Virus record (IMG/VR): IMGVR_UViG_3300013383_000028
Coordinates: 18,873 to 82,872 of that record
DNA from: a virus
Lineage: Duplodnaviria; Caudoviricetes
Strand: one strand, 5' to 3'
Length of the DNA stretch: 64,000 nt
Shown here: positions 43,923 through 63,530 of the stretch, one piece after another
How positions within the stretch are numbered: position 1 is the first letter of the stretch
Layout: each line of letters opens with the position of its first letter
The notes under the pieces: model-generated
Told to the model about the DNA's origin: nothing
What the model saw: the letters and a program-made list of their open reading frames with translations, nothing else
The model's database searches: none
Made by a program: the position numbers and the translations under genes

Positions 43923-44033
43923 AGAAAAGCCCCCTCTTTGTGCTTTAGTTTGAAGACCGAACACAAAGAAGGAGCCGACCAGAGGAAGCCCTCAAGGTAA
44001 ATTGATTATACCCTGTTGTGTTTCTTCTGTCAA
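43923..44033 (-). ncRNA. antisense sRNA of module 1 (~75 nt) with consensus promoter
   Basis: TTGACA (44033-28)-N17-TATAAT (44010-05); 14-bp stem GCTCCTTCTTTGTG/CACAAAGAGGGGGC + TTTT. Confidence 0.7.
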
Positions 44034-44069
44034 ACTGATTTTGTGGGCAATGCCCAGAAAGGAAACACA

Positions 44070-44840
44070 ATGAAGGATTTAATCACCATCAACAATAACG
44101 GCCAACCCGTTGCAAGCAGCCGGGATATCGCCGAACACTTCGAAAAAGAGCATCGGAATGTTCTTCGTGACATTGATGACCTCAGAAAAGATGTGCTCAA
44201 TTTTGAGCAGATGTTTTTCTCGGTCGAAATTCCAGATAGCTACGGCAGGCCACAGCGCGCGTACCTCATGAATCGAGACGGATTCTCGCTGCTGGTCATG
44301 GGCTTCACCGGGAAGTCCGCGCTCGAATGGAAACTCAAGTATATCGACGCATTCAACCGCATGGAAGCACAAATTAAAAGTCCACAGCCTATGACCACTG
44401 CCCAGATGTTTGCCATGCAAGCACAAGTCAATCTGGAACAGGAACAGCGGTTGGCGGCTCTGGAAAGTCGTGCGGAACGCAATGAACAGACCATGCAGAA
44501 AACGCTGGACATTTTCTCTGCACCTGCGGTCAGCCCCGACGATTGGACGGCGGCGATGAACCATCAGATCAATACTCTGGTGGAACGCTATGAGGCGAAT
44601 CACCAGAAATACCGCTCTGACCTCTACAAGGAGCTGGAATCTACTGCCGGTGTTGACCTCACGCTGCGGCAAACGCGGTTACGCAACCGCATGAAGAATG
44701 CTGGCGCGACAGTTTCGGAATGCAAGAACGTATCGAAGCTGCAGGTCGTTGCTCGTGACCGCAAGCTGCGTCCGATTTTTGAGAGCATCGTCCGCCGCCG
44801 CGCCGCGCTGTTATTATCAGCCAGCGAACAAACCATGTGA
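44070..44840 (+). CDS. Rha-family antirepressor/regulator (module 1)
   Basis: SSRDIAEHFEKEH..VLRDI, YLMNRDGFSLLVMGFTG..AL.WKLKYI..F. Confidence 0.85.
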   Translation: MKDLITINNNGQPVASSRDIAEHFEKEHRNVLRDIDDLRKDVLNFEQMFFSVEIPDSYGRPQRAYLMNRDGFSLLVMGFTGKSALEWKLKYIDAFNRMEAQIKSPQPMTTAQMFAMQAQVNLEQEQRLAALESRAERNEQTMQKTLDIFSAPAVSPDDWTAAMNHQINTLVERYEANHQKYRSDLYKELESTAGVDLTLRQTRLRNRMKNAGATVSECKNVSKLQVVARDRKLRPIFESIVRRRAALLLSASEQTM

Positions 44841-44854
44841 GGGAGGAATGAGCC

Positions 44855-45061
44855 ATGACAATCAGAGAGATCTATGAGCGCACACAGAATGTTGACGGCT
44901 GGATGATTGGCATCGACGGGTACGCATCGAAAGTTGACCTCGGCAATCCGGCCATTCTCGCCGGAATTGGAAAATTCCATGTGAAGACGATCTATCCGGA
45001 CGTCCACGACGGAAAGGTCGTTGTCGAACTGGACGTTGCTACGACTATCAATTCAGATTGA
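44855..45061 (+). CDS. conserved 68-aa protein, copy 1
   Basis: MTIREIYERTQNVDGW...ELDVATT; paralogues at 46039, 55064, 62326. Confidence 0.85.
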   Translation: MTIREIYERTQNVDGWMIGIDGYASKVDLGNPAILAGIGKFHVKTIYPDVHDGKVVVELDVATTINSD

Positions 45062-45074
45062 GTTCTGCAGACTT

Positions 45075-45102
45075 CCGGGAGGTTAATTCCTCCCGGTTTT
45101 TT
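45075..45102. terminator. terminator at convergence of + and - arms
   Basis: CCGGGAGG-TTAATT-CCTCCCGG-TTTTTT. Confidence 0.75.
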
Positions 45103-45112
45103 CTTTTCTATC

Positions 45113-45403
45113 TCAGAGATTGCTCAAAGTCCCGTCTCCGATGACAACCGCATTTGTCATGCTGCTGCCGAGAACGAAGACAGTGACCTGCGTGCCGACA
45201 GCTGCATTCTCCATGCTGGAGACGTATGGGAGCGCGATTTCTTTGTCGAATGCTCGCTGAATGGTGATCTTTCCGTTTGCGGCCACCCGTGTGACCTGTG
45301 CGCGGAAATACCAAATATTTGATCTGGTCAGTTCTTCGATTTTCGGTTTGAAGTAGTCCCAGAGCCTGTCTGCGAACCGCTTCATTTCCTGATTTTCATC
45401 CAT
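45113..45403 (-). CDS. putative baseplate spike-like OB-fold protein
   Basis: RAQVTRVAANGKITIQ...ALPYV...VGTQVTVFVLG pattern; not next to tail genes. Confidence 0.4.
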   Translation of the reverse strand: MDENQEMKRFADRLWDYFKPKIEELTRSNIWYFRAQVTRVAANGKITIQRAFDKEIALPYVSSMENAAVGTQVTVFVLGSSMTNAVVIGDGTLSNL

Positions 45404-45614
45404 GTGTATTACCCTCTGCTTCCGTTGGCGTACTGCTCAAAAGCACTGCGCCTCTCCGACAATGCGGCAACATTAACGCTGCTGCACCCACACTTTCGGC
45501 TTCGACTGTGAGTTCTTCGTTGTCTTTGTCATCGTACACAACAAGGAATGTGTAGCGGTTCTTGACAACATTCGTATGGAGTTTCCCGCCCATGCAATCA
45601 TTCCTTCCAGACAT
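45396..45614 (-). CDS. hypothetical protein
   Basis: Overlaps both neighbours in an operon-like run. Confidence 0.5.
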   Translation of the reverse strand: MSGRNDCMGGKLHTNVVKNRYTFLVVYDDKDNEELTVEAESVGAAALMLPHCRRGAVLLSSTPTEAEGNTHG

Positions 45615-45942
45615 TCGTGACTGTGAAGGTCATGCGCAGCCGGCAGTTGACATCAGCGAACGTCACCATATCGGCCAGCTTGTACATTTCGGAAATGCGG
45701 TTCCGGATGCTGTCATTGAGGATGTTGACCGGGAGAGGGAAGTCGACGTAGACGAAAGTGTTTCGGTCCCGTACCTCCAGATCATCCGCGTGCCACGGGG
45801 TACGCAGCGCCTTTGCAATCGCGGCTCCGTGCTCCTTAAGTTTGTTGTAGACCTCGACTTTTGCGGGAACCAGCTCGTTTCCGTGGAAAGCCTCATCCTT
45901 GGCCAGCATTGCAGCCACCATATCCTGAATATCCATTGCCAT
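45598..45942 (-). CDS. hypothetical protein
   Basis: GGAGG SD; downstream of GGGAC motif at 45996-46020. Confidence 0.65.
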   Translation of the reverse strand: MAMDIQDMVAAMLAKDEAFHGNELVPAKVEVYNKLKEHGAAIAKALRTPWHADDLEVRDRNTFVYVDFPLPVNILNDSIRNRISEMYKLADMVTFADVNCRLRMTFTVTNVWKE

Positions 45943-46038
45943 TGTATTTGCCTCCTATATTTTTTGATTTGCCCGTGAGGGCTTCTGTTTTTTCTTCTAC
46001 CGAAGAATCAGCTTTGTCCCACACGGGCGAGAAATTTT

Positions 46039-46254
46039 TTAATCGGTTACGATTTTCGTTGCGACTACCATTTCGATGACAGGTTTTCCGTCTTCCACAT
46101 CGACATCGAATGTGCTGACGTGAAAGTTCCCAACGCCGGCCATGATTGCGGGATTATCGAGGGCGATAGCATTAGCCAACCCATCTATGGCAATCATCCA
46201 ACGACCAACGTTCTGAGAGTGCTCATACAATTCCCTGATTGTCATTTGATGCAC
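46039..46254 (-). CDS. conserved 68-aa protein, copy 2 (most diverged)
   Basis: MTIRELYEHSQNVGRW...EMVVATKIVTD. Confidence 0.8.
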   Translation of the reverse strand: MHQMTIRELYEHSQNVGRWMIAIDGLANAIALDNPAIMAGVGNFHVSTFDVDVEDGKPVIEMVVATKIVTD

Positions 46255-46260
46255 CCTCCG

Positions 46261-47037
46261 TCACATTGCCTGCGGCCTGTCCATGATCGCGAGAATGCCG
46301 CGCTCTGTCAGGATTTCGTGAATCAGGAGACGGCCCTTCTGCGACCATTGCGTGAAGACACGGGTTCCTTTGCTCCCGTCGGAGTGGAGGAAGTGGAACG
46401 TCTTGGACTTGGTATACCCATTGCCCATGTGCTTCTTATAGAGAATCCATTGACCATTGACGTTGTGCTGGATTCCAGCTTCTTTTAGAATTTTGTTGAG
46501 CTGACGGGCACTCAGGTCGTAGTCAGCGGCGATCTGTGAGGTGGCCATGGTGGAGGTACTTTCGAGGATGGTATCTACGTACCGCTTGATTGGTTCGAAG
46601 TCCGCGATCATCTGCCGCTGCGCCTCGTTCTCCGCTTCTAATGCCAAACGCTTTTCTGCTTCATCAGCCAACGCACGAAGCGCGGAAGGGTAGTCCTGCG
46701 GAATTGCAAGCTGCTTTGCCCTCAGTGCTTCCTCCATTTTGTTGAAAGCCTCAATGTACTTGAGTTTCCATTCGAGCGCGGACTTCCCGGTGAAGCCCAT
46801 GACCAGCAGCGAGAATCCGTCGCGCGTCATGTAGTACATCGGATACGACTGACCGTTTTGCGGGTGGACATAGGTTGATTTGATGAACATGGGGGTGTCC
46901 CCAATTTTGGGGAGACCCCTCAAAAGTTCCTCAATGTCGCGCATAACGTGATCGTGTCGCTTGTCGAAGTGCTCCGCAATGTCTCTGCTGCTTGCGACGG
47001 GTTGGCCGTTATTGTTGATGGTGATTAAATCCTTCAT
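46261..47037 (-). CDS. Rha + KilAC/ANT antirepressor (module 2)
   Basis: Rha N terminus near-identical to 44070; C-term PQDYPSALRALAD...IAADYDLSARQLNKIL...WSQKGR. Confidence 0.85.
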   Translation of the reverse strand: MKDLITINNNGQPVASSRDIAEHFDKRHDHVMRDIEELLRGLPKIGDTPMFIKSTYVHPQNGQSYPMYYMTRDGFSLLVMGFTGKSALEWKLKYIEAFNKMEEALRAKQLAIPQDYPSALRALADEAEKRLALEAENEAQRQMIADFEPIKRYVDTILESTSTMATSQIAADYDLSARQLNKILKEAGIQHNVNGQWILYKKHMGNGYTKSKTFHFLHSDGSKGTRVFTQWSQKGRLLIHEILTERGILAIMDRPQAM

Positions 47038-47073
47038 TGTGTTTCCTTTCCGGACATTGCCCACAAAATCAGT

Positions 47074-47186
47074 TTGACAGAGGAAACACAACACGGTATA
47101 ATAGATTTACCGTGAGGTTTCCTCCGGGTCGGCTCCTTCTTTGTGACTTGTTTGCTAGACGTTGGCACAAAGAGGGGGCTTTTCCT
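47074..47186 (+). ncRNA. antisense sRNA of module 2 with consensus promoter
   Basis: TTGACA (47074)-N17-TATAAT (47097); same 14-bp stem as module 1, different loop, TTTT. Confidence 0.7.
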
Positions 47187-47367
47187 ATTTCTGTGTCAGC
47201 CGCGAGTGCAGGTCATTAACCATTTCTTCAAGCAAATCTGTTTTTGTCTTCCCAGATAGTTGTGCGCATTCTGAAAATTTCCTGACGGTTGATTCCGTTG
47301 CCCGAAGCGCAATCTGCTTGTTTTTCGGTTCTTCACCTACAATGGGGCGTCCGTATTTAGGCGACAT
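47185..47367 (-). CDS. ribbon-helix-helix regulator (module 2)
   Basis: GRP...KQIALRATESTVRKFSECAQLSGKTKTDLLEEMV RHH pattern. Confidence 0.7.
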   Translation of the reverse strand: MSPKYGRPIVGEEPKNKQIALRATESTVRKFSECAQLSGKTKTDLLEEMVNDLHSRLTQK

Positions 47368-47382
47368 CTTGATACCTCCTTT

Positions 47383-47423
47383 ATGCCTAGGCGTATTATA
47401 ATATATGTCTAGGCATATGTCAA
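47383..47423 (-). promoter_or_regulatory. module 2 promoter with paired palindromic operators
   Basis: TTGACA-N17-TATAAT; ATGCCTAGGCGT (47383) and ATGTCTAGGCAT (47405). Confidence 0.85.
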
Positions 47424-47476
47424 GTAGAACTTTCAATTTTTGTTCTACAGGGGAGTTACGGGTTGTCCCGCCCAGA

Positions 47477-47980
47477 TTAAAGAATTTTTATCGGACGGCA
47501 TTTCTGAATGTGCATCAAGCGGTCTGCTGCTTCTGCTATCCACATCACATCTTCTGATTCCAGAAGACTATTTAGTGCATCACGTGCCGCTGATTTCTTG
47601 AGGGAAATAAATATGTTATCATCTTCGGTTTCAGTTGAAATCCTTGCCAGATTCTCAGCAGCTTTTCCTGAAATGCCGAGTGTAGCAGCTGCAACTTGAA
47701 TGTTTTGCTCAACACTTTCAATATTTGTTACACCTAGCAGCCAGTCCGTAGACACGTTGAAGTATTCTGCGATTTTCGCGATATTCTCCCAACTGGGCTG
47801 TCCAAAACCGTCACAGTATGCAGATACAGATTGTCTTGCCTTCAGGCCGAGATAATCCGCTAATTCTTGCTGCGATACAGTTCTGTTGATTTTCCCTGCG
47901 TCCCCACGCATGAGCCTACGAAGACGACTGGGGAATGGCTTGTAATAGTTGTCTGTGTAATTGAGCTTTTTGCGCGGCAT
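47477..47980 (-). CDS. XRE-family HTH transcriptional regulator (repressor-like)
   Basis: SQQELADYLGL..RQSVSAYCDG..QPSWENIAKIAEYFNVSTDWLLG. Confidence 0.85.
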   Translation of the reverse strand: MPRKKLNYTDNYYKPFPSRLRRLMRGDAGKINRTVSQQELADYLGLKARQSVSAYCDGFGQPSWENIAKIAEYFNVSTDWLLGVTNIESVEQNIQVAAATLGISGKAAENLARISTETEDDNIFISLKKSAARDALNSLLESEDVMWIAEAADRLMHIQKCRPIKIL

Positions 47981-47981
47981 A

Positions 47982-49067
47982 TTATACACCCCTCATTTCC
48001 CGCACGTTCTGTGCCACGATCTTCACGGCCTCGTCGATAATTCTTGCATCTCGTTCGAGGTTCAGGCCATAATTGTGGCTCATGTCGCTCTCACAAGGGA
48101 CGAGTTTGTAATCGAAACTGAACCGAATAGCCGAACGTGCGCGTTCTTCAGAATACCCGGAAGCCAGAAGTACACGGGACGGCGCGTTATCACCGCTGGA
48201 ACACGCTGCACCGGATGAAACCATCAGTCCATCAGCGGCAAGCCGCAGGACGAGCGCGTGGTTTTCAATACCAGGGAAAGACATGTTTGCGATGTACGGA
48301 GACTGCTCTTCCTCGTGGCCTATGTATTTGCAACCATTGAGATGTGCATCCGGGATTTCATTCATGATACCGTCAATCAGCCGGTCATGCAACAGTCCTG
48401 TTGCCCCGGCGAAAGTATTCATGAGATTTGTGCGGAACTCCAACGCAGACGAAAATGCGGCAGCAAGGGGAGCGGACGGCGTCCCAAAATGGAAATGCTC
48501 TGTGATTGCCTCCGGAGTTCGTGCAATCAGGACGCCAACTCCAATCGGAGCGCCAAATTTATGCCCGCTTCCGCATATGAAGTCTATGCTGCTTTCACGG
48601 AAGTTGATTTTTTGCTTTCCCATCGCTGCGGTGCAGTCAGAGAACTTGACGTCATACTCAGTGAAAGCAGCATCTAGGTCGTAAATCGTTCCGGTTTCAT
48701 TATTGGTGAAAATCTGCACACGTCCATTCAAATCGGAGCTTTGCCATCCTCGTAGCATACATTCGGCAATGCTCGATACAGCCGAATGCTCGACACCACT
48801 AACACGGAACACTCGACATATATCGTCCATGGCTGTCAGCGCAATCCTGCACGCTTCTGTCGCAGATGAAACGAAGAAAACCTGATCTGGCTCGCAGTTC
48901 AAGCACTGCGCTACGGTCTCACGGGACGCTTCGATTGCCTTTCTGGCGCTCTGCCCAAATGAATGTACGGAGTTTGGGTTTCCCCATACTGATGTTGAAA
49001 CTGCATTGAATGCGGTTCTTGCGCATTGAAGCAGGGGAGAAGTAGCTGCGTGGTCAAGGTAGATCAT
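47982..49067 (-). CDS. iscS: cysteine desulfurase (IscS/NifS family)
   Basis: IYLDHAATS, GNPNSVH, NNETG, SGHKFGAP (PLP Lys), SSGAACSSG (catalytic Cys). Confidence 0.9.
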   Translation of the reverse strand: MIYLDHAATSPLLQCARTAFNAVSTSVWGNPNSVHSFGQSARKAIEASRETVAQCLNCEPDQVFFVSSATEACRIALTAMDDICRVFRVSGVEHSAVSSIAECMLRGWQSSDLNGRVQIFTNNETGTIYDLDAAFTEYDVKFSDCTAAMGKQKINFRESSIDFICGSGHKFGAPIGVGVLIARTPEAITEHFHFGTPSAPLAAAFSSALEFRTNLMNTFAGATGLLHDRLIDGIMNEIPDAHLNGCKYIGHEEEQSPYIANMSFPGIENHALVLRLAADGLMVSSGAACSSGDNAPSRVLLASGYSEERARSAIRFSFDYKLVPCESDMSHNYGLNLERDARIIDEAVKIVAQNVREMRGV

Positions 49068-49609
49068 ACGGCCACCTCAACAGGCTTCGGCCAACGCGGA
49101 AGCGCGGCGGCACAGATCTTTTCGTAGATTTCCCTTTGCGCGAGCAGCGTATCGCGTTCCTTCTGCATTGCGCGGTATGCGTCTTCTAAGCCAAATGGCT
49201 CGTTGATCGGAATGCAGGCCTTTTCCAGTGCTTGCTCTTGCGAGACTGCTGCACTGCCCGCGGGGGGGGCAGAGATACCCAAGGAGACGAGCAACGCTTC
49301 GTCGACCATCTTAGTTTCTGCATCCGTTAAAGTGCAGTAGTAGTTCTCCAGACGTGCCTTATCGACTGTATAAACACACTCACACAGCGCAGTGGACTGC
49401 TTCCCCATAGTGTTGATGACGATGTGCGTCGGCATGGGCTTTTTCTCTGCGGTCGTAAGGTACACGATCTCAACTGTTTCGGAATATGTATTGTTTCGGT
49501 CGTTGCTGACGATGATGGCCGGACGGTTCTTTCTGATCTCCGAACCGACAGAATTAAGATCTTGACGAATCCAGAAGATATCTCCCCGATGAATCTTGTA
49601 ATCAAGCAT
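49064..49609 (-). CDS. MazF/PemK-family endoribonuclease (orphan)
   Basis: RGDIFW...GSEIRKNRPAIIVSND..N, PTH, ALCE...TVDK.RL. Confidence 0.85.
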   Translation of the reverse strand: MLDYKIHRGDIFWIRQDLNSVGSEIRKNRPAIIVSNDRNNTYSETVEIVYLTTAEKKPMPTHIVINTMGKQSTALCECVYTVDKARLENYYCTLTDAETKMVDEALLVSLGISAPPAGSAAVSQEQALEKACIPINEPFGLEDAYRAMQKERDTLLAQREIYEKICAAALPRWPKPVEVAV

Positions 49610-49669
49610 GAGTGTGCTTCCTTTCTAGTTGTATTTTTATATGTAGAGGGGCGAAACCGCCCCATGATC

Positions 49670-49945
49670 TCACTTGGCGACAGCGTTTTTCAGAACGCTG
49701 CTTGCCGAGAATTTGACTGCGAATCTTGCAGGAACATCGACCGTTCCACCCGTGGCCGGGTTTCTGGCGGTTCGTGCTTTCTGATACTTTGCAGCAAACT
49801 TTCCGAATCCTGCGATGGTGACATTTTCATGCGCAACGAGTGCTTCTTCAATCGCGGCAAAAACTGCATCGACAGCTTCAAGGCTGGCGGTCTTCGGCAT
49901 ATTAGTCTTGCTGGCAACTGCCTGAACGAGTTCTTCTTTGTTCAT
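49670..49945 (-). CDS. hup: HU-family DNA-binding protein
   Basis: MNKEELVQAVA...GFGKF...ARTARNPATG..V.VPAR..VKF.A...LK.AV. Confidence 0.95.
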   Translation of the reverse strand: MNKEELVQAVASKTNMPKTASLEAVDAVFAAIEEALVAHENVTIAGFGKFAAKYQKARTARNPATGGTVDVPARFAVKFSASSVLKNAVAK

Positions 49946-49972
49946 GTGTACTCCTCCTTTCTTAAGAATCAA

Positions 49973-50047
49973 TGGTGGGCCGTGCAGGTGTCGAGCCTGC
50001 AACCTGCCCGTTATGAGCGGGCTGCTCTGCCGTTGAGCTAACGGCCC
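49973..50047 (-). tRNA. tRNA with CAT anticodon, probably Ile2
   Basis: GGGCCGT/ACGGCCC-ACCA, loop CT-CAT-AA, Ile2-like body; T loop CTCGACA atypical. Confidence 0.8.
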
Positions 50048-50406
50048 GTCTATGACCGGCTTCACGTACCGGCCTTGAGGTCTTGCGCGCAGACAACAAC
50101 GGCAAATCAGGTGATTGCGCACCGGCGCTTAACAGTCGGAAGTTTCTAAAGCGTTCCCAAAGATGCTTCCCCAGCTTGGAAGGATTTCAGTTCGCCCCAA
50201 GCGTCGAACAAACATTTTGCAGCGTAGCTCCTATCCCGCTTTCTGGCCCATATAGCTGCATTGTGCCTCGTTCTCCTTGGACGCTGCGGGTACAGCGTCT
50301 TTAGCCGGGGCCGCTACGATTCACGAATCCGCTATTGCGTGCGTGAATGGATAGCCGTATTTTCCCCATGTTAAATATAGTCGCGCGGAGAACCCCAACG
50401 GGCGGC

Positions 50407-50483
50407 TGGCAGGGGTAGCAGGATTTGAACCTGCGCATATGGGAGTCAAAGGCCCATGCCTTAGACCGCTTGGCGATACCCCT
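50407..50483 (-). tRNA. tRNA-Gln(TTG)
   Basis: AGGGGTA/TACCCCT-GCCA, loop CT-TTG-AC, T arm GCAGG-TTCAAAT-CCTGC. Confidence 0.9.
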
Positions 50484-50623
50484 TTGTTGCCGGTCTTTCC
50501 CGGCCGTCAAAGCGCTTACATTCCCGAAGAGCTAATCCTTGGTATCGGCTGTATCAACCCGACGACACCGCTGCCAGATGCGGAGGCTTCATTCCACCGG
50601 GGGAAGTCATCCGATGGCGGGCA

Positions 50624-50690
50624 TGGGCGGCTTGGCAGAATCGAACTGCCTCGGGTCAGTTGCTCGTCGCTGCCCTTTACCAAATGCCGC
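50624..50690 (-). ncRNA. tRNA-like RNA / pseudo-tRNA
   Basis: GCGGC/GCCGC-CCA end and perfect T arm GGCAG-TTCGATT-CTGCC; D arm reduced, no canonical anticodon loop. Confidence 0.45.
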
Positions 50691-50852
50691 GTGTTGCCAC
50701 ACTGACGCAGTGGCCTCGGCTGTCTCTCCAGCTGTTACCGCTTCGTGTCGGCTGCTTGCGGTTAGCCCCCGTGGGTACACAATTCCGTCTGCCTGCTGTG
50801 ACCTATCTATGGCAGACCCGTTCAGGCTTGTACTTCGCCCGGTCACTGGACG

Positions 50853-50928
50853 TGGTGGAACCGACCAGACTTGAACTGGTGGCCTCCTGATTCCAAATCA
50901 GGCGCGCTTCCAACTGCGCTACGGCTCC
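50853..50928 (-). tRNA. tRNA-Pro(TGG)
   Basis: CCTGA-TT-TGG-AA-TCAGG; GGAGCCG/CGGTTCC-ACCA. Confidence 0.9.
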
Positions 50929-51116
50929 ATATTGGCCGTCTTCCCGCTTAGATTTTCACACGCTACCGGCAACTACGGTCCGAAGATCCGCAGCCCCTAT
51001 TCCGTCAGGTCAAACCGGTCTTGACGCATCAAGACAAGCGCAGTTTTCAGCGGGCATTTTCGTTCTCTGTGTGGCTCGACGGTCGCGCACACATCATCCG
51101 GGAGCGACCCGGCATC

Positions 51117-51203
51117 TGGCGGCAGATGGAGGTGTCGAACCCCACGGCTTTCACCGCGCACTGTTTTCAAGACAGGCTCCGAGGCCGCTCGAAATCATCT
51201 GCC
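51117..51203 (-). tRNA. tRNA-Ser(TGA)
   Basis: GGCAGAT/ATCTGCC-GCCA, loop CT-TGA-AA, long variable arm. Confidence 0.85.
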
Positions 51204-51210
51204 GTATTGG

Positions 51211-51284
51211 TTGGAGGTTTTGCACCATGCACGTTCAGGAGTCGAACCTGACCGTTTGGGGACTCGAACCCCGCTGCACCTCCA
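51211..51284 (-). ncRNA. tRNA-sized RNA with two T-arm hairpins
   Basis: TGGAGGT/ACCTCCA stem enclosing GGGG-TTCGAGT-CCCC and CAGG-TTCGACT-CCTG. Confidence 0.5.
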
Positions 51285-51501
51285 AGGATGACCGTCACCC
51301 TATATTGCACGGAATAGGCTTTTCTCACCGCGCTATGAACCTGTAACCTCACCGTTCTTTGTCTGGTTTCTTGTTGACCAGCAACAGCGCCATATCGCTT
51401 CAGATTCTAATGGCTTGCGCGGAATAGTGTCATCACCGTGCTATGAGCCTTCGCACAATCTCGCTCTTTGGGCGGCACGATGCCCCGCCATGATACCCAT
51501 G

Positions 51502-51575
51502 TGGACCGGTATACGAGGGTCGAACTCGCGCTCTCAGTTTGGAGGACTGATGTGCTACCACTACACCAATACCGG
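51502..51575 (-). tRNA. tRNA-Gly(TCC), atypical C33 and C1-G72
   Basis: TCAGT-CC-TCC-AA-ACTGA; CCGGTAT/ATACCGG-TCCA with U73. Confidence 0.8.
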
Positions 51576-53183: not shown

Positions 53184-53219
53184 ATTATAGCAAATGCTCC
53201 AAGTCGAATATGTCGCACC
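53184..53219 (-). promoter_or_regulatory. 24-bp tandem 0A-box-like element + -10, copy 1 (recombinase)
   Basis: GGTGCGACATATTCGACTTGGAGC-N6-TATAAT on minus strand. Confidence 0.7.
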
Positions 53220-53223
53220 AAAA

Positions 53224-53715
53224 TCAGGAAATTCCAAGAAAATTATGATTTATTATATCCAGCTCTTCCATATATTTCGGGTGCACGTATCCTTCGAGTG
53301 CGCGGTCGATATGTTGCACTTCCTCGTCTCTTCCCATGATCCGAAGGAACGCGGCAGCAATGCGCCGATATGCTTTCCGCGCGTCGTTGAGCGGGGCCAG
53401 GAACTGCTCAAATACCGGCGTGTATCCGACAGGATAGTCCAACCCGAACAACTCCTTGTACCCCTGTGCAATCAGCGGCACAAATTCGTTCGCGAACTTT
53501 GATTCGTCCATGAGAAAAGCGTCCTTTTCGCCCTTGACACGCTTGCCGTCCTCGGTGTAGAACTCGCCGTGTTTTGCGGCGTATTCGTATGCCGCTCTCT
53601 CACGCGCCAGTGCGTCATTATACGCCTGTTCCGCCGCTTTCATTGCTGCATAGCGAGCTAAACCTACTACGCGCAATTCGTCCAACTGCTTCTGAATATT
53701 TGCTGTGATTACCAT
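53224..53715 (-). CDS. hypothetical protein
   Basis: AAGGAG SD; 163 aa. Confidence 0.65.
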   Translation of the reverse strand: MVITANIQKQLDELRVVGLARYAAMKAAEQAYNDALARERAAYEYAAKHGEFYTEDGKRVKGEKDAFLMDESKFANEFVPLIAQGYKELFGLDYPVGYTPVFEQFLAPLNDARKAYRRIAAAFLRIMGRDEEVQHIDRALEGYVHPKYMEELDIINHNFLGIS

Positions 53716-54932: not shown

Positions 54933-55004
54933 TTTGCATTCCTCCTAAAAATTTGATTGATAGTTTTTCTTCTACTGGGTTCCTTGTTTTGTCCCGATAA
55001 TCTC

Positions 55005-55050
55005 AATATAACACCCGCTCCAAGTCGAATATGTCGCACCTTATTCGACA
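55005..55050 (-). promoter_or_regulatory. 24-bp tandem 0A-box-like element + -10, copy 2 (spo0A-C), plus a perfect TGTCGAA box
   Basis: Motif 55017-55040, N6, TATATT; TGTCGAA on minus strand at 55050-55044. Confidence 0.7.
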
Positions 55051-55063
55051 CAGAATTGGACTT

Positions 55064-55270
55064 TTAATCGGTCTGGATCGTTGTCGCGACGTCCAGCTCC
55101 ACGACAACCTTTCCGTCGTGAACGTCCGGATAGATCGTCTTCACACGATAACTGCCGATGCCGTCGAGGATGGCCGGATTGCCAAGATCTACAGCTGACG
55201 CATAGCCGTCAATACCAAGAATCCAGCTATCGACGTTTTGGGTGTGCTCATAGATTTCTTTGATGGTCAT
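55064..55270 (-). CDS. conserved 68-aa protein, copy 3
   Basis: MTIKEIYEHTQNVDSW...ELDVATTIQTD. Confidence 0.85.
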   Translation of the reverse strand: MTIKEIYEHTQNVDSWILGIDGYASAVDLGNPAILDGIGSYRVKTIYPDVHDGKVVVELDVATTIQTD

Positions 55271-55283
55271 AATTTTCTCCTCC

Positions 55284-56057
55284 TTAGTTTTTGTGCATTT
55301 TAGCCGCTACCAACTGCGCGTATCTGCGTTGAACGATTCCTGCGAAGATTTCCCGCAGGCGCTGATCCTGTGCGATAACCGTCAGCTTGTTGACGGCCTG
55401 ACGGTCTGCGTATTTCGCGCCGCCGACCTTCATGCGTTCGCGCTGGTGCTTCACCCGGACTTCGAGGTTGCAGCCAGCGGATTCTTCCAGCGACTTATAG
55501 AGCGAGCCGGTTTCCTTCTGGAAGTTGAGATCGAACTCCATGCACATCTGCCGGATTCTGCTTCTAGTCTCCACCTGCCAATGATCGCGGCTGACGGTAG
55601 GGGAGGCGAGTGCGGAGAATGCCGTGCTCATGGTGTCGCGCATCTGCGTCTGGCCGGTTTCAAGAGCGGCAATGCGGCGCTCCTGATCTACCATAAGCTG
55701 CGCTTGCGCAAGCAACTGCTCGGCAGGGGAAAGTGACGCTTTCAAACGCTTCTGCATTTCCTCAAAAGCCGTAACATAAGCGGCTGTGAATAATACGCCT
55801 TTCTCGCCTGTCATTTTGTTTGCTACCATGTCGCAGCCTTTGCGCGTGAGAAAGTAGCGCGGGCGAGTTTTTCCTTGAGCGTCAACATAGTTGCTCGGAA
55901 CAAAGAAATCCAGCGAACGGAATTTTCCGTTGGCTAAAAAATCGTTGTATGTGCTTATCTTTTCCAGCAAGTCGGCGTGTCTCATTTCAATGGACTGCGC
56001 AACTTCTCTGCTGTCTAAAACCTCGATACCGTTGTTTGTGGTAACTTGCAGTTTCAT
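55284..56057 (-). CDS. Rha-family antirepressor (module 3)
   Basis: LDSREVAQSIEMRHADLL, YFLTRKGCDMVANKMTGEKG..FTAAYV..F; C terminus homologous to module 1. Confidence 0.85.
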   Translation of the reverse strand: MKLQVTTNNGIEVLDSREVAQSIEMRHADLLEKISTYNDFLANGKFRSLDFFVPSNYVDAQGKTRPRYFLTRKGCDMVANKMTGEKGVLFTAAYVTAFEEMQKRLKASLSPAEQLLAQAQLMVDQERRIAALETGQTQMRDTMSTAFSALASPTVSRDHWQVETRSRIRQMCMEFDLNFQKETGSLYKSLEESAGCNLEVRVKHQRERMKVGGAKYADRQAVNKLTVIAQDQRLREIFAGIVQRRYAQLVAAKMHKN

Positions 56058-56105
56058 CGTGTAATCCTTTCCGGAAGATATAAAAATCCCCCTATCAAAT
56101 TTGGA

Positions 56106-56239
56106 TTGACAGGGGAATATAATCACGGTATAATTAAAAAACCGTAAAGTATCCCCCATGTCATGCGGGTATTTTCGGGCAGCTCCCTTCTTTGTGCCGG
56201 TCGCCAAACTAGTCACAGGGAAGGGGGTATTTTATTTAT
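56106..56239 (+). ncRNA. antisense sRNA of module 3 with consensus promoter
   Basis: TTGACA (56106)-N17-TATAAT (56129); 15-bp stem GCTCCCTTCTTTGTG/CACAGGGAAGGGGGT + ATTTTATTT. Confidence 0.65.
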
Positions 56240-56333
56240 CGGATTCAAGATCTTTTTTAATCAGCTTCAAGATGTACTCTTTTAGGGTGATTTCCTCTTG
56301 CGCAAACCTCCTTAAAAAACACTTTTTTCTCAT
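56232..56333 (-). pseudogene. truncated RHH gene remnant (module 3)
   Basis: 33 codons ending AQEEITLKEYILKLIKKDLESDK, like the second RHH helix; at the RHH position of the other modules. Confidence 0.45.
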
Positions 56334-56464
56334 ACTACCATGCCATTCCAGTTTTTCAAGCACCTGCATCAAATTTTGTAAATTCTGACGAGATGCCTGT
56401 ACTTATACTTCTACGCAAAATCTGCGTTTGTCCCGCAGAATCGACCTTAAATTTTCTTGGTTTG

Positions 56465-56493
56465 TTGACATTATGGGAACGTCCCGTTAAAAT
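56465..56493 (+). promoter_or_regulatory. sigmaA promoter of type I toxin 2
   Basis: TTGACA-N17-TAAAAT. Confidence 0.7.
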
Positions 56494-56576
56494 AAAAAAG
56501 CCCACCTTCCGGTGGGCGGGGCGCTGCATGGAGGTGGCAGACGGTCGGCACTTCCCTTAAAAAGGAGGTGTTTCGC

Positions 56577-56663
56577 ATGGCTACATGGACTGAGATTTTC
56601 TCGTTCTCCACCGTACTCATCGCATTTGCGGGTTTGATCGTTCAGATCTGCAAAAAGAAATGA
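56577..56663 (+). CDS. type I toxin-like 28-aa peptide, copy 2
   Basis: MATWTEIFSFSTVLIAFAGLIVQICKKK; paralogue of 42364; SD AGGAGGTG. Confidence 0.75.
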   Translation: MATWTEIFSFSTVLIAFAGLIVQICKKK

Positions 56664-56768
56664 CCGCCATCGGCATAAGGCTAGGTCAAATCCCCTAGGC
56701 ATCCTTGGCTGACCGCTTGTGGCAGCGCCCCTTTTTCTTTATTATACCGAAAAAATGAAAAGTGTCAA
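56650..56768 (-). ncRNA. putative RNA antitoxin 2 (including its promoter)
   Basis: TTGACA (56768-63)-N16-TATAAT (56746-41), convergent on toxin 3' end. Confidence 0.6.
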
Positions 56769-57013
56769 TGAAAACCAGAACCGTCCGAACGTTGGCGGCT
56801 CTGGTTTTCTTGGTTTCAACCATTTTTGTGACCTTGCGGAAATGGTCGCTTGGTACTGACTTGGTGCAAACTTAAGACCAACTTAGAACTGACTTGCGTG
56901 TGTTTTCCGTGTGTTTTCCGTGTGTTTCCCGTGCGATTCTATTATTACAGCGTGGAATGTTGCGGCCAACTTGCAACCTGCTTGCGATCAATTTCGTGAG
57001 GTCACGAAGATGA

Positions 57014-57892: not shown

Positions 57893-57983
57893 TTTAAGTA
57901 CCTCCTAGTTTTCTTGGTTTTCCTGTTCTGCTTTTGTATCTACCGGAAGCGGGAACTTCGTCCCGCCTCCGGCAAACTTTTTG

Positions 57984-59180: not shown

Positions 59181-59302
59181 TTTGAATGCCTCCGTATTCT
59201 GTAGTGTTTTTGTTTTCTTGGTTTTGTATCTACCTGAAATCTTGGTTTGTCCCGTAAATTGAAAAATTCCAAGAGAAAAGCAGGGGCATGATTCGTCCCT
59301 GC

Positions 59303-59524
59303 TCACCATCCGAAGTATATCTTTGCTACCGCGTATCTGATCTGCTCAAGGCTTGCCAGGCAGCCAGCGCAGGTTGCGTGATACTTGCAGTACTTGTATA
59401 TTTCGTACTGCCGCTCCTTCGGCAGATCTTCAAACTCGCCGCTGTTGATCATGTGCGTTTTCAGCAGTTCCAGATCGGTCAGATCTTCCATGTCAATCAT
59501 GGGGATGTTGACGTATGTTTTCAC
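59303..59524 (-). CDS. hypothetical protein
   Basis: GTG start, coupled to upstream ORF. Confidence 0.5.
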   Translation of the reverse strand: MKTYVNIPMIDMEDLTDLELLKTHMINSGEFEDLPKERQYEIYKYCKYHATCAGCLASLEQIRYAVAKIYFGW

Positions 59525-59713
59525 TCAGTAGTCCTCCTCGGCATTCAACCAAAACATTTTGAGCGGGTACACCGAACGCTTTTTAACGAGCCGTCTCAGA
59601 TTAGCGACAGCTTCCTCATAGTTCCTTGCTGGTATCTTAATCGAAATCAAGCGTCCATTTTCGTAATTCATGCCGAAAGTGTAGAGCTTCCATCCTGCGT
59701 CGTTTCTTTCCAT
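59525..59713 (-). CDS. hypothetical protein
   Basis: AAGGA SD; downstream of GGGAC motif. Confidence 0.55.
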   Translation of the reverse strand: MERNDAGWKLYTFGMNYENGRLISIKIPARNYEEAVANLRRLVKKRSVYPLKMFWLNAEEDY

Positions 59714-59807
59714 TGTTTATCCTTTCCGCCCGACTCGGGGCTGTCTGTTTTGCCCTTACACTTATTCTTCTACAGCAGGAAGCGGAAATGTCCCGCTTCC
59801 TACGAAA

Positions 59808-60140
59808 TTATTTTCTGCTATTGTGACCGTCTCCACCGTACTTATACCAGTCGGGGAGATACCCGGCATATTTTGCAGACAGGATTTCGTCATCCAGAAC
59901 GGTTTCCTTGGTTCCGTTGTCGGACATTATGAGGGAAACTAGAGCGTCGACGCAGTAGTCTTCGCAGCCTTGAAACGTCCACGTCAGGCAAGCGTAGTCC
60001 GTGACGGTCACGGTGTCGGTATCATAGTCCAGCGCTGTGATAAGCGCCGTATGTGCGTATGTGGTGATCGGCTTATGTGCTGCGCAGAGGATGGAGACGG
60101 CAGAAACGACGGCAAGCAGCAGCGCGATAATCTTTTTCAT
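59808..60140 (-). CDS. exported/membrane hypothetical protein
   Basis: Signal-peptide-like MKKIIALLLAVVSAVSILCAA. Confidence 0.6.
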   Translation of the reverse strand: MKKIIALLLAVVSAVSILCAAHKPITTYAHTALITALDYDTDTVTVTDYACLTWTFQGCEDYCVDALVSLIMSDNGTKETVLDDEILSAKYAGYLPDWYKYGGDGHNSRK

Positions 60141-60185
60141 GGTAGAACCTTTCTCCCCGTATGCCCGATAGGTCAGGCTTGGATG

Positions 60186-60848
60186 TTATGCACTCGGAAT
60201 ATCGTAGACTTTCTGCGATTCGTACCGGATGACTGCGCGCCCCTGATTGTCTTCACCGCCGTACATCGGACCGCAGAAGTTTTTGAGAATCGGCGCGCCT
60301 TGCAGCTCTACACGGCACGATACGCTGTGGAACTCCCCGGCAGTCTCGAACGCTTTTCTTAGATGCTCGACGGTTTCAAATTCCTCAATGGTCATGCGCG
60401 GTCGCGGGTCATCCGAATTTATGCTGATGACCATGTAGATTTTGCCCTTCTGTTGGATTTCTGCGAGGTGGACACGTTCGGATTCCTCGGCTAACTTCTG
60501 CTCCTGCGGGAAGCCGTCAACCAGCCCATAGAACATGTTCCGGTCAAAGCACTGAAAACTACGCGGATGCTCCCATGTGGTTTCCTGCCATCCGGAGAAT
60601 ACGGCCACAGTCTTAACTCCATAGAAACGCATGCCGTATAGCTTGCGACCGCCGCGCTTTTTGAAGTAGACCGTCAGCGCGTCTTTGTACTGCGCATACG
60701 GCTTGATCTCGGCGTATGCTGCGTTGACGTGGAGAAAATACACGCCGCCGAACTCGCTCTCGGTGACAATGGTCATTCTGGGGTTCTTGGAACCAGCTGC
60801 CGCGTTCACGGCATCGGCGATTTTTTGGAAGATTTCAAGCTGTTTCAT
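60186..60848 (-). CDS. hypothetical protein
   Basis: GGAGG SD; 220 aa. Confidence 0.65.
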   Translation of the reverse strand: MKQLEIFQKIADAVNAAAGSKNPRMTIVTESEFGGVYFLHVNAAYAEIKPYAQYKDALTVYFKKRGGRKLYGMRFYGVKTVAVFSGWQETTWEHPRSFQCFDRNMFYGLVDGFPQEQKLAEESERVHLAEIQQKGKIYMVISINSDDPRPRMTIEEFETVEHLRKAFETAGEFHSVSCRVELQGAPILKNFCGPMYGGEDNQGRAVIRYESQKVYDIPSA

Positions 60849-60936
60849 TGTATGTGACCTCCTGTTTTCTTGGTTTCCTCTACACCTTTATTGCTACCGG
60901 CGCAACTGCATTTGTCCCGCTGCGCCGGTACTTTTT

Positions 60937-61203
60937 TCAGTCGATTTCCTGCTCGGAAATCTCCCAACTGTAGATCGTGGCTTGCTCCAAGCAGTTTCGC
61001 CCGCACCGTCCGAGGTGAATGCTCATGGGTTCGTCCCAGGTCATATCCTCGTCCCAGAAATCTTCGTCGAACTCTTTGCGGATAGCGTCTGCTCCGACCT
61101 CGATCTGCGCACGGGCTTTCTCTACCGTTGAGAGAACGCCCAGGACTTCCACGCCCTCGTTGTCGGGCGTGTCCCAATGATGAACCACTACGTAAACGGT
61201 CAT
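60937..61203 (-). CDS. hypothetical acidic protein
   Basis: GGAGG SD before ATG 61203. Confidence 0.6.
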   Translation of the reverse strand: MTVYVVVHHWDTPDNEGVEVLGVLSTVEKARAQIEVGADAIRKEFDEDFWDEDMTWDEPMSIHLGRCGRNCLEQATIYSWEISEQEID

Positions 61204-61217
61204 GATTTTGCCCTCCC

Positions 61218-61376
61218 TCAAATGTAATACCAGACGATGAACTTGTTTTCGCTGCCGTCGGCGGACTGCCACGGCGTTATGCGTGCCTTGCGACGCTGTT
61301 TCTTGCGCGCTGCCACGAATGCGGCGGCTTGCTGTTCTGTGCTGAAAAACTCAAAGGTTTTGCGGTACTGGTTCAT
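61218..61376 (-). CDS. small hypothetical protein (52 aa)
   Basis: Hand-translated MNQYRKTFEFFSTEQQAAAF...FIVWYYI; SD GGAGG. Confidence 0.6.
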   Translation of the reverse strand: MNQYRKTFEFFSTEQQAAAFVAARKKQRRKARITPWQSADGSENKFIVWYYI

Positions 61377-61388
61377 GGTGGTTCCTCC

Positions 61389-61742
61389 CTATGCGATCTG
61401 CTCGGCAGGTTCTGCAAATTCCTGCGAAATTTTGAAAAGCATCATTTTTTTGAGCGCCTGTTTGCTCATGGTTTTCTCGTCGTAGCTGTTCGGCCTGTCC
61501 CAGACGAGGACGCGAAAAACACCGTTGTCGATGTCTGCGATCTCTCGGTATATGCAGACAGTCAGGCTTCCGGTGAAACAGATCTTTAGGGCGTTCAACG
61601 TGCTTGCATCGCCCCGGAAGATCTTCATTCCTGCATCCAGCAGGTGCGCGGCGGTCTCTTCGGAAAATGCAAGGGCGTGCTGTTCGACGTTCTCAAAACA
61701 GCCAAAAATGTTTTTCGCGTCGTAGTTTGCGATAAATTCCAT
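61389..61742 (-). CDS. hypothetical protein
   Basis: AAGGAGG SD. Confidence 0.6.
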   Translation of the reverse strand: MEFIANYDAKNIFGCFENVEQHALAFSEETAAHLLDAGMKIFRGDASTLNALKICFTGSLTVCIYREIADIDNGVFRVLVWDRPNSYDEKTMSKQALKKMMLFKISQEFAEPAEQIA

Positions 61743-61755
61743 GGTTCGTCCCTCC

Positions 61756-62103
61756 TTAGTCTATGATGTCTGAATCCAGCAAGATTTCGGAGTAGGCGAT
61801 CGTCGCACTGTTGCAAAGGTTGACGCGCTCCGACAGCTTCTGAAGCATGTCAATCGGCCCGGTAGCGCGGACAACATATCCGCGGCTAGGTGCGAAATCT
61901 CCGCCCTTGACAACGACCGAAAAGCGGGACATATAGCTTTCTTCTTCGTCGATTTCCTCAATGTCATCCATGCAGGCACCGCATTGCGCACAGAACGGCG
62001 TGATGTCTCTAACTTCTGCCCCGCATTCAGAACAGTGGGGTTCTCCCTGCGCGTTGTATACCCATTCGCCGAACTTCGGCCATGCTGCTTTCTTGCTTTC
62101 CAT
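61756..62103 (-). CDS. zinc-ribbon protein
   Basis: HCSECG...FCAQCGACMD. Confidence 0.7.
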   Translation of the reverse strand: MESKKAAWPKFGEWVYNAQGEPHCSECGAEVRDITPFCAQCGACMDDIEEIDEEESYMSRFSVVVKGGDFAPSRGYVVRATGPIDMLQKLSERVNLCNSATIAYSEILLDSDIID

Positions 62104-62117
62104 TTTACCGTCTCCTC

Positions 62118-62231
62118 TCACAGAATGAACTCGATCAACGAATCCGCACACAGAATGACAATGAACATTGCGGCGATTGCAGCGCCGGTCAGGAACATGT
62201 GGATTCCCGAAGTTTTGTAATAGTTTTTCAT
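62118..62231 (-). CDS. small membrane peptide (37 aa)
   Basis: MKNYYKTSGIHMFLTGAAIAAMFIVILCADSLIEFIL. Confidence 0.5.
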   Translation of the reverse strand: MKNYYKTSGIHMFLTGAAIAAMFIVILCADSLIEFIL

Positions 62232-62325
62232 ATGTAACTTCCCCCGTTCGGTAGTTTATCTTATATTTTTTGTTCTACCGAAGGGCGGGATTTGTCCCGC
62301 CCCTTATCGGAAAAACCGAACTTTT

Positions 62326-62532
62326 TTAATCGGTTTGGATAGTCGTAGCAACGTCCAGTTCCACAACGACCTTCCCATCATCCACATCCGGGTAGATCGT
62401 CTTTACATGATAATTCCCGATACCGGCGAGAATGGCCGGATTTCCAAGATCGACAGCTGACGCATAACCGTCAATACCGAGAATCCAGCTGTCAACGTTC
62501 TGGGTGTGTTCATAAATCTCTCTGACTGTCAT
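62326..62532 (-). CDS. conserved 68-aa protein, copy 4
   Basis: MTVREIYEHTQNVDSW...ELDVATTIQTD. Confidence 0.85.
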   Translation of the reverse strand: MTVREIYEHTQNVDSWILGIDGYASAVDLGNPAILAGIGNYHVKTIYPDVDDGKVVVELDVATTIQTD

Positions 62533-62547
62533 GGTTAAATCCTCCTG

Positions 62548-63294
62548 TTAATTTTCCAGAAGCGCCTTTTTCGGCGCGTGCTTGTTGATGAAGTATTTCT
62601 GACCGCGCGGGGTAACGCGTACAACCTTATCCAGCACTGTCCCAGCCTTTCCAACTCGCGGCGTTTCGCGCACGAAGAACAGACCGAGTTCCATGGCTTT
62701 CTGCGTCGGCATGTTGTAGTCCGTGCCTTTGTTCTTAATCAGATACCCTTCCTGACGCAGCTGTTCATACAGTCGGTTGCCGCCGATTTCATATCCGTTT
62801 TGAGAAAGAAGCTTCGCCATCTCGCGGACAAGGATGTTTGAATCTGCGCCGGTGACAGCTTCTGCGAAGAACACGGCAGGCGCGTCGGCTTCGATTTTCG
62901 CCTGCAACTGTTTCACCTGATTGTTTGCAATCTGCAAAGCCCGCGCCATGACCTTCTCCGGACTGTTCCACGCTTTTTCGAGTTCTACGAAGTACCGGCG
63001 GGCGATTTTGCCCTTTTCGTTGCGCTGCAACATACAGATTTCTTTTGCCATGTCAATGGTGATTGCCGCGTCATCGACGAAACGTTTGACCATTCGATTT
63101 CCTTCGTTTTGAACTCGCTCAATTTTGAGAAGGTTGAAATCGCGCCCCAACTCGAACCCGTATTCGCACATACGAGGGAACCAGTCGGCGTACTTTGTTT
63201 CAACTTCTAGGAATGCGTGCAAGTCACGCGCGGACAATGTGATTCGTTCAGGGTTTTCAGTGTTGATAGGGATGATTTTCGCCAATTCATTCAT
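62548..63294 (-). CDS. AntA/AntB + KilAC antirepressor (module 4)
   Basis: SARDLHAFLEV...YADW..RM..YGF..G.DF, ITIDMAKEICM; APAVFFAEAV...LVREMAKLL, MPTQKAMELGLF, VTPRGQ.YF. Confidence 0.88.
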   Translation of the reverse strand: MNELAKIIPINTENPERITLSARDLHAFLEVETKYADWFPRMCEYGFELGRDFNLLKIERVQNEGNRMVKRFVDDAAITIDMAKEICMLQRNEKGKIARRYFVELEKAWNSPEKVMARALQIANNQVKQLQAKIEADAPAVFFAEAVTGADSNILVREMAKLLSQNGYEIGGNRLYEQLRQEGYLIKNKGTDYNMPTQKAMELGLFFVRETPRVGKAGTVLDKVVRVTPRGQKYFINKHAPKKALLEN

Positions 63295-63340
63295 AAAATT
63301 GCTCCTTTGATCGTGTCGGTGGGGATTCATCCCTATTGCC

Positions 63341-63376
63341 AGCATAGCAAACGCTCCAAGTCGAATATGTCGCACC
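63341..63376 (-). promoter_or_regulatory. 24-bp tandem 0A-box-like element + -10, copy 3 (antirepressor 4)
   Basis: Motif 63353-63376, N6, TATGCT preceded by TG. Confidence 0.7.
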
Positions 63377-63415
63377 TATTTCTGGAAAAGGGTATAAAAA
63401 TCCCCGTGAATGTGG

Positions 63416-63530
63416 TTGACGATTCACGGGAAGTGTAGTAGAATATTTACACTTCGACCGTGAGGTCGTGGGGATTCCTCGTGCTGTCTGTCCGCCAAGA
63501 AAGAGCAGCGCGGGGAATTTTTATTTTTTG
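63416..63530 (+). ncRNA. antisense sRNA of module 4 with promoter
   Basis: TTGACG-N17-TAGAAT; CGACC-GTGA-GGTCG hairpin; 13-bp terminator + U tract overlapping the RHH stop. Confidence 0.65.

Follow-up and report, generated by a model that had tools for sequence, protein, structure and literature searches.

Predicted antisense RNAs between repressor-like and antirepressor genes in a phage with four antirepressor cassettes

How might a phage that carries four antirepressor genes in one genome hold each of them silent? The locus that raises this question lies in a window of 64,000 nucleotides (nt), bases 18873-82872 of an IMG/VR virus record of 82.9 kb (IMGVR_UViG_3300013383_000028; Duplodnaviria, Caudoviricetes), where each of four antirepressor genes (ant) follows a small repressor-like gene and a non-coding spacer. 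The original prediction had placed in every spacer an antisense RNA (asRNA) that would cover the leader of ant and keep the gene off. By the features described below it is highly likely that the four elements are real antisense RNA genes, and they are very probably cis-antisense RNA genes of a single family. That these RNAs act as negative gates on read-through into ant is the interpretation that we favour, with moderate confidence. The circuit would be of a known kind, that of arc-sar-ant in phage P22 and of copG-RNAII-repB in pMV158, formed with an RNA family that has no Rfam match.

The four cassettes and their predicted RNAs

The left 43 kb of the window is occupied by structural genes and the right 20 kb mainly by leftward early-type genes, together with a tRNA cluster and the four antirepressor genes. 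Since relatives of the Rha proteins occur only in Bacillota (the nearest belong to uncultured phages, many of them out of one metagenome), the host is probably a Firmicute, Clostridia-like at a guess. Megablast of the cassette region against deposited phages gave no match. The cassettes, called here modules 1 to 4 (Table 1), have a common plan, in which an operator-embedded promoter is followed by the gene of a small basic protein, the non-coding spacer, ant, and an open reading frame (ORF) of 68 amino acids (aa). The domains of the ant products are Rha in module 1, Rha and KilAC in module 2, Rha in module 3, and AntA and KilAC in module 4.

An antisense promoter with 17-bp spacing was located in all four spacers, as had been claimed; three are perfect matches to TTGACA/TATAAT and the fourth agrees with the consensus in 10 of 12 positions. 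Perfect promoters are scarce in this genome, with only 7 in the whole 82.9-kb record, and 3 of these are antisense promoters 1-3. Exactly four such promoter-RNA units were found in the genome. The predicted RNAs measure 77-96 nt, which agrees with the ~75-100 nt proposed at the outset, and all four fold into a short 5' hairpin, a terminator hairpin of 14-17 bp with an apical region of 17-20 nt, and a U tract. The A-rich end of the small repressor gene, stop codon included, templates the U tract. The cassettes share with the immI region of P22 a predicted convergent small RNA with its terminator right next to the stop codon of the repressor. The minimum free energies were -34 to -38 kcal/mol for the antisense strand and -21 to -28 kcal/mol for the sense strand, a gap of 10-13 kcal/mol, and the z-scores of the antisense folds ranged from -3.0 to -5.3. 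The claim that a terminator stem containing G.U pairs works on the antisense strand was borne out by 3-5 such pairs in the antisense hairpins of modules 1-4 against 0-2 in their sense counterparts.

The predicted RNA starts lie ~72, 72, 84 and 157 nt before the start codon of ant in modules 1-4, so the ribosome-binding site (RBS) of ant stays uncovered in all four. The original prediction was therefore right that these RNAs lie over the leader and not, like sar, over the ant RBS; the covering of that site which characterizes immI was seen in none of modules 1-4. A cmscan search of positions 43000-64000 against Rfam (E up to 5) returned no family, sar included, that overlapped the four predicted RNAs, and in the literature searched, the coverage of which was incomplete, there was no description of the four-module asRNA family.

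A ribbon-helix-helix (RHH) gene had been assigned to each cassette, and this holds to a different degree in each. In modules 2 and 4 the small proteins fall into phrog_876, annotated as transcriptional repressor. The module 2 protein was modelled with eight homologues from related loci and the module 4 protein, and the model obtained had a predicted local distance difference test score (pLDDT) of 79. Its best structural matches were all RHH proteins, CopG and Arc included, with target-normalised template modelling (TM) scores of 0.75-0.88 and a root-mean-square deviation of ~1 Å; with so small a domain, the E-values were weak. Nothing useful came from searching solved structures with the sequences of the small proteins. 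The module 1 protein, which is of another family (phrog_3896), resembles RHH proteins in its sequence pattern only, and in module 3 just a remnant of the gene is left, its 3' half: homology to the intact gene of L040 begins mid-gene and the upstream half has been replaced (L-numbers denote ant/Rha loci of relatives, compared here with the modules of the window). With these two reservations, a small RHH repressor gene stands directly upstream of an antirepressor gene on the same strand, as in immI.

A unit resembling type I toxin-antitoxin systems was also observed in two copies, 77% identical, at 56440-56790 and 42180-42570, and one copy has taken the place of the 5' half of the module 3 repressor gene. 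Each codes on the + strand for a hydrophobic peptide of 28 aa ending in KKK and has on the - strand a convergent RNA that begins at a consensus promoter and, in the 56-kb copy, stops at a terminator at 56517-56500.

Stems and loops in related loci

About 110 related ant loci were gathered and 92 distinct ant-upstream regions were scored with a fixed scan rule, which asked for a promoter followed by a terminal hairpin of 36 nt or more and then a U tract. On the antisense strand the unit was found in 23 of the 92 regions, on the sense strand in 0 of 92, and in none of five rounds of shuffling. Among 80 loci with remoter Rha genes in Bacillota genomes it appeared only once (L135, in a metagenome-assembled genome of Oscillospiraceae), so the antisense RNA family is clade-restricted. 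A DNA pattern derived from the shared stem, used as a search query, returned unrelated contigs only.

The 5' arms of the 23 hairpins are merely 30% identical, and pairing is nevertheless kept. Over 11 basal pairs in 23 hairpins, 252 of the 253 cells are paired, 210 by Watson-Crick and 42 by G.U pairs, with 0 A.C and 1 other combination, and every one of the 11 positions shows 4-6 pair types; when a hairpin arm was matched with the arm of another sequence, 46% of the cells were paired. Given that the hairpins were chosen by folding, the percentage paired is partly circular; the contrast between A.C and G.U and the cross-sequence and slid controls are not. Counted over entire hairpins, there are 97 G.U pairs on the antisense strand and 12 on the sense strand, and in 24 of 24 members it is the antisense hairpin that folds more stably. 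MAFFT gave alignments, both of the whole RNAs and of the hairpins, that were inconsistent with the structure, and on these RNAalifold found no pairs. For that reason the covariance-model route was dropped and the pairs were tallied by script on a base-anchored alignment, on which RNAalifold gave 15 pairs and -26.7 kcal/mol for the antisense strand versus 12 pairs and -18.4 kcal/mol for the sense strand.

A key aspect is whether the hairpin is a recognition element and not a terminator only, and the best argument that it is comes from the loop motif. The U-turn motif YUUG(G/C) is present in 15 of 20 distinct loops when 3.0 would be expected, and the hexamer UUGGCG in 6 of 20 when 0.24 would be expected; neither count was ever reached in 5000 shuffles. 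Modules 3 and 4 and four other lineages have UUGGCG at the tip of their recognition hairpin. Ten loops carry the U-turn motif on the antisense RNA, and eight on the sense hairpin. The recognition loops of either partner thus hold the motif, as in U-turn (YUNR) kissing-loop systems, where it has been reported on either partner (PMC4485353); UUGGCG itself is named as the loop motif of the ColIb-P9 Inc RNA target in the title of Asano et al. (1998). The loops were described originally as variable, and they do differ between modules, but around this conserved motif.

With regard to specificity, loop-loop energies of cognate pairs were -28 to -33 kcal/mol. Direct reading confirmed that modules 1 and 2 have a common stem and unrelated loops, a clean loop swap, and cross-pairing of these loops gave only -1.3 and -5.5 kcal/mol versus -28 and -33 for the cognate pairs. 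A modelled kiss of asRNA1 with asRNA2 was marginal (-9.3 kcal/mol, p about 0.05). The idea of orthogonal silencers is therefore sustained for modules 1 and 2, but the set is not fully orthogonal, since cross-pairing reached -17 to -18 kcal/mol between modules 1 and 3, whose stems are nearly identical and whose loops have a 7-nt run and five further positions in common, and -11 kcal/mol between modules 3 and 4, which share CGCCAA. Read as its reverse complement, the 17-nt antisense loop of module 3 matches exactly the antisense loop of the first L092 unit, and the two stems are unrelated. A bolder proposal, to which we give a low probability, is that phages of Clostridia-like hosts hold a large natural set of kissing-loop countertranscripts in which self-contained loop cassettes of the UUGGCG type, borne on unrelated stems, would be exchanged or flipped between the RNA partners to reset specificity; acting at a distance, the RNA would occupy the stretch of leader to which a cis copy of its 5' end is normally bound, and the freed copy would close the RBS or a terminator.

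Stems and loops together bear on the possibility that these elements are palindromes at the DNA level, that is, sites of protein binding or recombination in which promoter-like and terminator-like features are incidental. A loop cassette found in both orientations would suit such sites, and so would the helix at the antisense -10 box described below, which lacks strand bias. The stems, however, have a strong strand bias (42 G.U against 0 A.C in the basal pairs), the U tract is on one strand only, and the promoter is conserved over 23 distinct loci with unrelated stem sequences, for which reasons we consider this explanation very improbable.

The related loci contain as well another conserved promoter and terminator unit of ~100 nt, which begins ATAGCTAAATAAGAC and lies 0.5-1 kb upstream of Rha genes in L127, L156 and L181 (Amphibacillus, Bacillus, Paenibacillus) and in the viral contigs L009-L011. 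It may be another antisense RNA family.

Leader architecture and possible action on ant

In the mechanism that we favour, each cassette would make a constitutive cis-antisense RNA, or countertranscript, from the near-consensus promoter that faces the auto-repressed promoter of the repressor, and its synthesis would stop over the repressor stop codon, at a terminator of its own that works in one direction. Its target would be the portion of the sense transcript running on beyond that gene. The first contact is probably a loop-loop kiss, in which the apex of the terminator hairpin meets the mirror hairpin of the mRNA with the aid of the U-turn motif, after which the duplex would grow to 75-95 bp. 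As a result, read-through from the repressor promoter would yield little antirepressor, and repressor and RNA would jointly hold ant silent in the phage-carrying cell, in the manner of arc and sar in P22. The route of silencing may depend on the leader: in modules 1 and 2, where it is short, a cis segment would be released and close the ant RBS, and in modules 3 and 4, where it is long, the sense terminator would be favoured. In either class RNase III could cut the long duplex, which is an equally simple route.

The two classes are apparent in the leaders themselves. In the short ones (modules 1 and 2; L003, L015, L059, L060, L061 and L069) the Shine-Dalgarno sequence of ant is in or near a hairpin, and in modules 1 and 2 there is no sense terminator or second promoter between the target and ant. 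The long ones (modules 3 and 4; L005, L042, L053, L067, L068 and L074) have a sense-strand intrinsic terminator whose loop contains the antisense -35 hexamer. One leader segment is complementary to the first 16 nt of the RNA, and in 14 of 15 lineages it pairs with a second segment immediately beyond the antisense -10 box (Fisher 3e-19), the geometry that a refolding switch would require. It suggests a switch in which the RNA takes the first leader segment and frees the second, which runs into an anti-Shine-Dalgarno or into the 5' arm of the terminator.

Action by termination or refolding, as originally put forward, gained mixed support when the leaders were modelled with the target blocked. 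In short leaders the accessibility of the Shine-Dalgarno sequence fell clearly in module 2 (from 0.53 to 0.02), and also in L015 and L060a, so that occlusion of the RBS was borne out in 3 of 8. In long leaders the probability of the terminator rose from 0.64 to 0.92 in module 4, slightly in module 3 (0.89 to 0.96), and also in L068, with no change in L005, L053 and L067. The target was complementary to the 5' arm of the terminator beyond shuffled sequences in about half of the leaders, and anti-terminator pairing was not convincingly found. An equilibrium attenuation model was not supported in general; equilibrium folding cannot decide a kinetic attenuator.

Several observations weigh against a gate on ant. 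All four RNAs are predictions, known here from sequence alone; the G.U asymmetry is also what a plain terminator would display; and the argument for recognition between RNAs comes down to the loop motif and the 17-20-nt apex. The helix around the antisense -10 box has no strand bias (18 versus 15 G.U pairs) and could thus be a DNA palindrome. Modelled blocking of the target left the RBS as accessible as before in module 1, L003 and L059, and in modules 3 and 4 and their relatives the sense terminator was formed at equilibrium whether the target was blocked or free (P 0.64-0.98). For module 4 the proposed link between RNA and silencing of ant is weak, because a sense terminator and a repeated promoter-like element of 45 nt lie between the target and ant4; this gene probably has its own promoter beyond the terminator, and asRNA4 would then act only on read-through transcripts. 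Finally, the 3' end of the RNA is fixed on the repressor stop codon and its distance to ant varies from ~14 to ~160 nt, and in L092 a unit that follows a repressor gene has another repressor cassette next to it instead of ant.

The 45-nt repeat has three copies (63344-63388, 55008-55052 and 53187-53231), 76-89% identical, with TTCGAC/GTCGAA boxes. The first sits between the sense terminator of module 4 and the ant4 RBS and the other two precede other genes, an arrangement that suggests a separate, co-regulated promoter for ant4. At L092:1372-2500, three tandem small-repressor cassettes stand before one ant, and two of them have their own countertranscript.

The fixed 3' end, with its U tract invariably over the stop codon, and the L092b unit, which precedes another repressor gene, would also be expected if the RNA mainly controlled the repressor gene. 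It would overlap the repressor mRNA at its 3' untranslated end, like the partners of convergent type I toxin-antitoxin systems, and set the stability of that mRNA by duplex cleavage, with an indirect effect on ant through the repressor level; the sense terminator just beyond the target in modules 3 and 4 and in many relatives fits this as well. Against it, modules 1 and 2 have neither terminator nor second promoter before ant, which makes a bicistronic mRNA the target, the RNA gene of module 3 is intact although its repressor gene is a remnant, and in P22 and pMV158, both of the same layout, the RNA acts on the downstream gene. We therefore hold control of the repressor to be unlikely as the main function. 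The conserved cassette is the repressor gene with its countertranscript, which would gate whatever is downstream, and in modules 1 and 2, with no intervening promoter or terminator, that is ant.

The strength of the antisense promoters could also be read as transcriptional interference, in which they block or collide with sense polymerases and the short transcript is a by-product, ended fast to protect the repressor gene. They are perfect or near-perfect and oppose the sense promoter at ~300 bp, and the location of the antisense -35 hexamer in the sense terminator loop (modules 3 and 4, relatives) would imply mutual shielding. A by-product, however, has no need of a U-turn motif, a 17-20-nt apex or a conserved 5' hairpin, and plain terminators, that of sar for instance, usually have small loops. 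Interference cannot act in trans, yet the diversification of the loops of modules 1 and 2 suggests selection on trans specificity. This account is, in our judgement, decidedly unlikely.

By comparison with known systems, gating of ant by repressor and RNA has a close model in immI of P22, where an auto-repressed promoter is also followed by a small RHH repressor gene and the antirepressor gene. In the P22 record sar extends over 15021-15090, with its promoter inside ant and its terminator over the arc stop codon. Like the phage RNAs, it is a convergent RNA (of ~70 nt) with a 5' hairpin and a G.U-bearing terminator hairpin, it has its 3' end on the repressor stop codon, and it folds better than its sense strand (-29.5 vs -21 kcal/mol). 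Unlike them, it starts in ant and covers the whole intercistronic region with the ant RBS, and its terminator loop has 4 nt where here the apex is the recognition region; the RNA family is another one, the probable host is a Firmicute, and there are four cassettes in one genome.

In pMV158 the countertranscript lies in the intergenic region behind the RHH repressor gene, close to the translation signals of the following gene on their upstream side but not over them, and control is dual, by protein and RNA (PMC4485353). The phage RNAs are likewise complementary to the intergenic region just upstream of those signals, and the module 2 fold resembles CopG; RNAII, however, is 48 nt long with one hairpin and neither partner has a U-turn loop (PMC4485353), whereas the phage RNAs have two hairpins and the motif, and the controlled gene is an antirepressor gene in place of that of a replication initiator. 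The attenuation systems of pT181 and pIP501 share a countertranscript aimed at the leader upstream of the RBS, recognition by loop-loop contact and, in modules 3 and 4, a sense terminator after the target that overlaps the countertranscript promoter. They differ in that modules 1 and 2 are without such a terminator and in that no convincing anti-terminator pairing was obtained here. The IncIalpha and IncFII plasmids (Inc RNA/RepZ mRNA; CopA/CopT) have in common with modules 3 and 4 and the four other lineages 5'-UUGGCG-3' at the apex of the recognition hairpin; CopT carries this hexamer. In the phages the hexamer occurs on either RNA, with no leader peptide or pseudoknot logic.

Feature positions, neighbouring elements and significance

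Table 1. Positions in the window of the features of the four antirepressor cassettes.
Feature	Position	Strand	Basis
Module 1 sense promoter TTGACA-17-TATAAT within palindromic operator	43687..43715	+	promoter search, direct reading
Module 1 small repressor-like gene, 58 aa, phrog_3896, RHH-like by sequence pattern only	43746..43922	+	
asRNA1, ~78 nt, predicted: 5' hairpin, terminator hairpin 43928-43976, U tract across repressor-like stop codon	43921..43998	-	
Antisense promoter 1, TTGACA-17-TATAAT, 12/12 consensus	44005..44033	-	
ant1 (Rha domain), RBS inside predicted hairpin	44070..44840	+	
Module 2 sense promoter, 12/12, CTAG-centred operator	47395..47423	-	
RHH2, 60 aa, model resembles CopG, Arc, TacA and ParD folds	47185..47367	-	
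asRNA2, ~78 nt, predicted; stem as asRNA1, 20-nt loop differs	47109..47186	+	
Antisense promoter 2, TTGACA-17-TATAAT, 12/12	47074..47102	+	
ant2 (Rha + KilAC)	46261..47037	-	
Module 3 RHH remnant, 3' half only, upstream part replaced	56232..56333	-	
asRNA3, ~96 nt, predicted; sense-strand target loop UUGGCG	56141..56236	+	
Antisense promoter 3, TTGACA-17-TATAAT, 12/12	56106..56134	+	
Module 3 sense-strand intrinsic terminator, loop contains antisense -35 hexamer	56086..56118	-	
ant3 (Rha)	55284..56057	-	
Module 4 sense promoter TTGACT-17-TACAAT with TTGCCA/TGGCAA palindrome	63734..63762	-	direct reading
RHH4, 61 aa, phrog_876 transcriptional repressor	63521..63706	-	
asRNA4, ~77 nt, predicted; sense loop UUGGCG	63451..63527	+	
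Antisense promoter 4, TTGACG-17-TAGAAT, 10/12	63416..63444	+	
Module 4 sense-strand terminator hairpin, then five U	63401..63432	-	
ant4 (AntA + KilAC), downstream of repeat D3 (63344-63388), probable own promoter region	62548..63294	-	

An ORF of 68-71 aa lies directly 3' of every ant, at 44855-45061 (+), 46039-46254 (-), 55064-55270 (-) and 62326-62532 (-); the copies are 63-82% identical in DNA, and those tested had no Pfam or PHROG match. It was also possible to see a bipartite motif, CGGGACAA-N13/14-GTAGA, in six copies against 0.02 expected, all of them on the - strand (47444-47470, 54971-54996, 56410-56435, 59229-59254, 62274-62299 and 63808-63833). Three are located just upstream of modules 2, 3 and 4 and the others among leftward genes, a distribution by which the motif may be a phage-specific promoter or regulator site. 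The tRNA cluster at 49976-51575 (-) comprises four tRNA genes and one sub-threshold match resembling tRNA-Sec (44 bits vs a gathering score of 47).

Antirepressors control the awakening of a prophage or of its neighbours; with four of them, each gated separately, one phage could serve as a hub of cross-induction in a gut-type community. The asRNAs would carry the sar paradigm of P22 to phages of Firmicutes, acting differently, upstream of the RBS. They would also make up a natural series of stem and loop variants, partly orthogonal, like those that synthetic biologists engineer from pT181, and the loop cassette that occurs in both orientations would provide a direct test of the specificity determinants in kissing-loop control.

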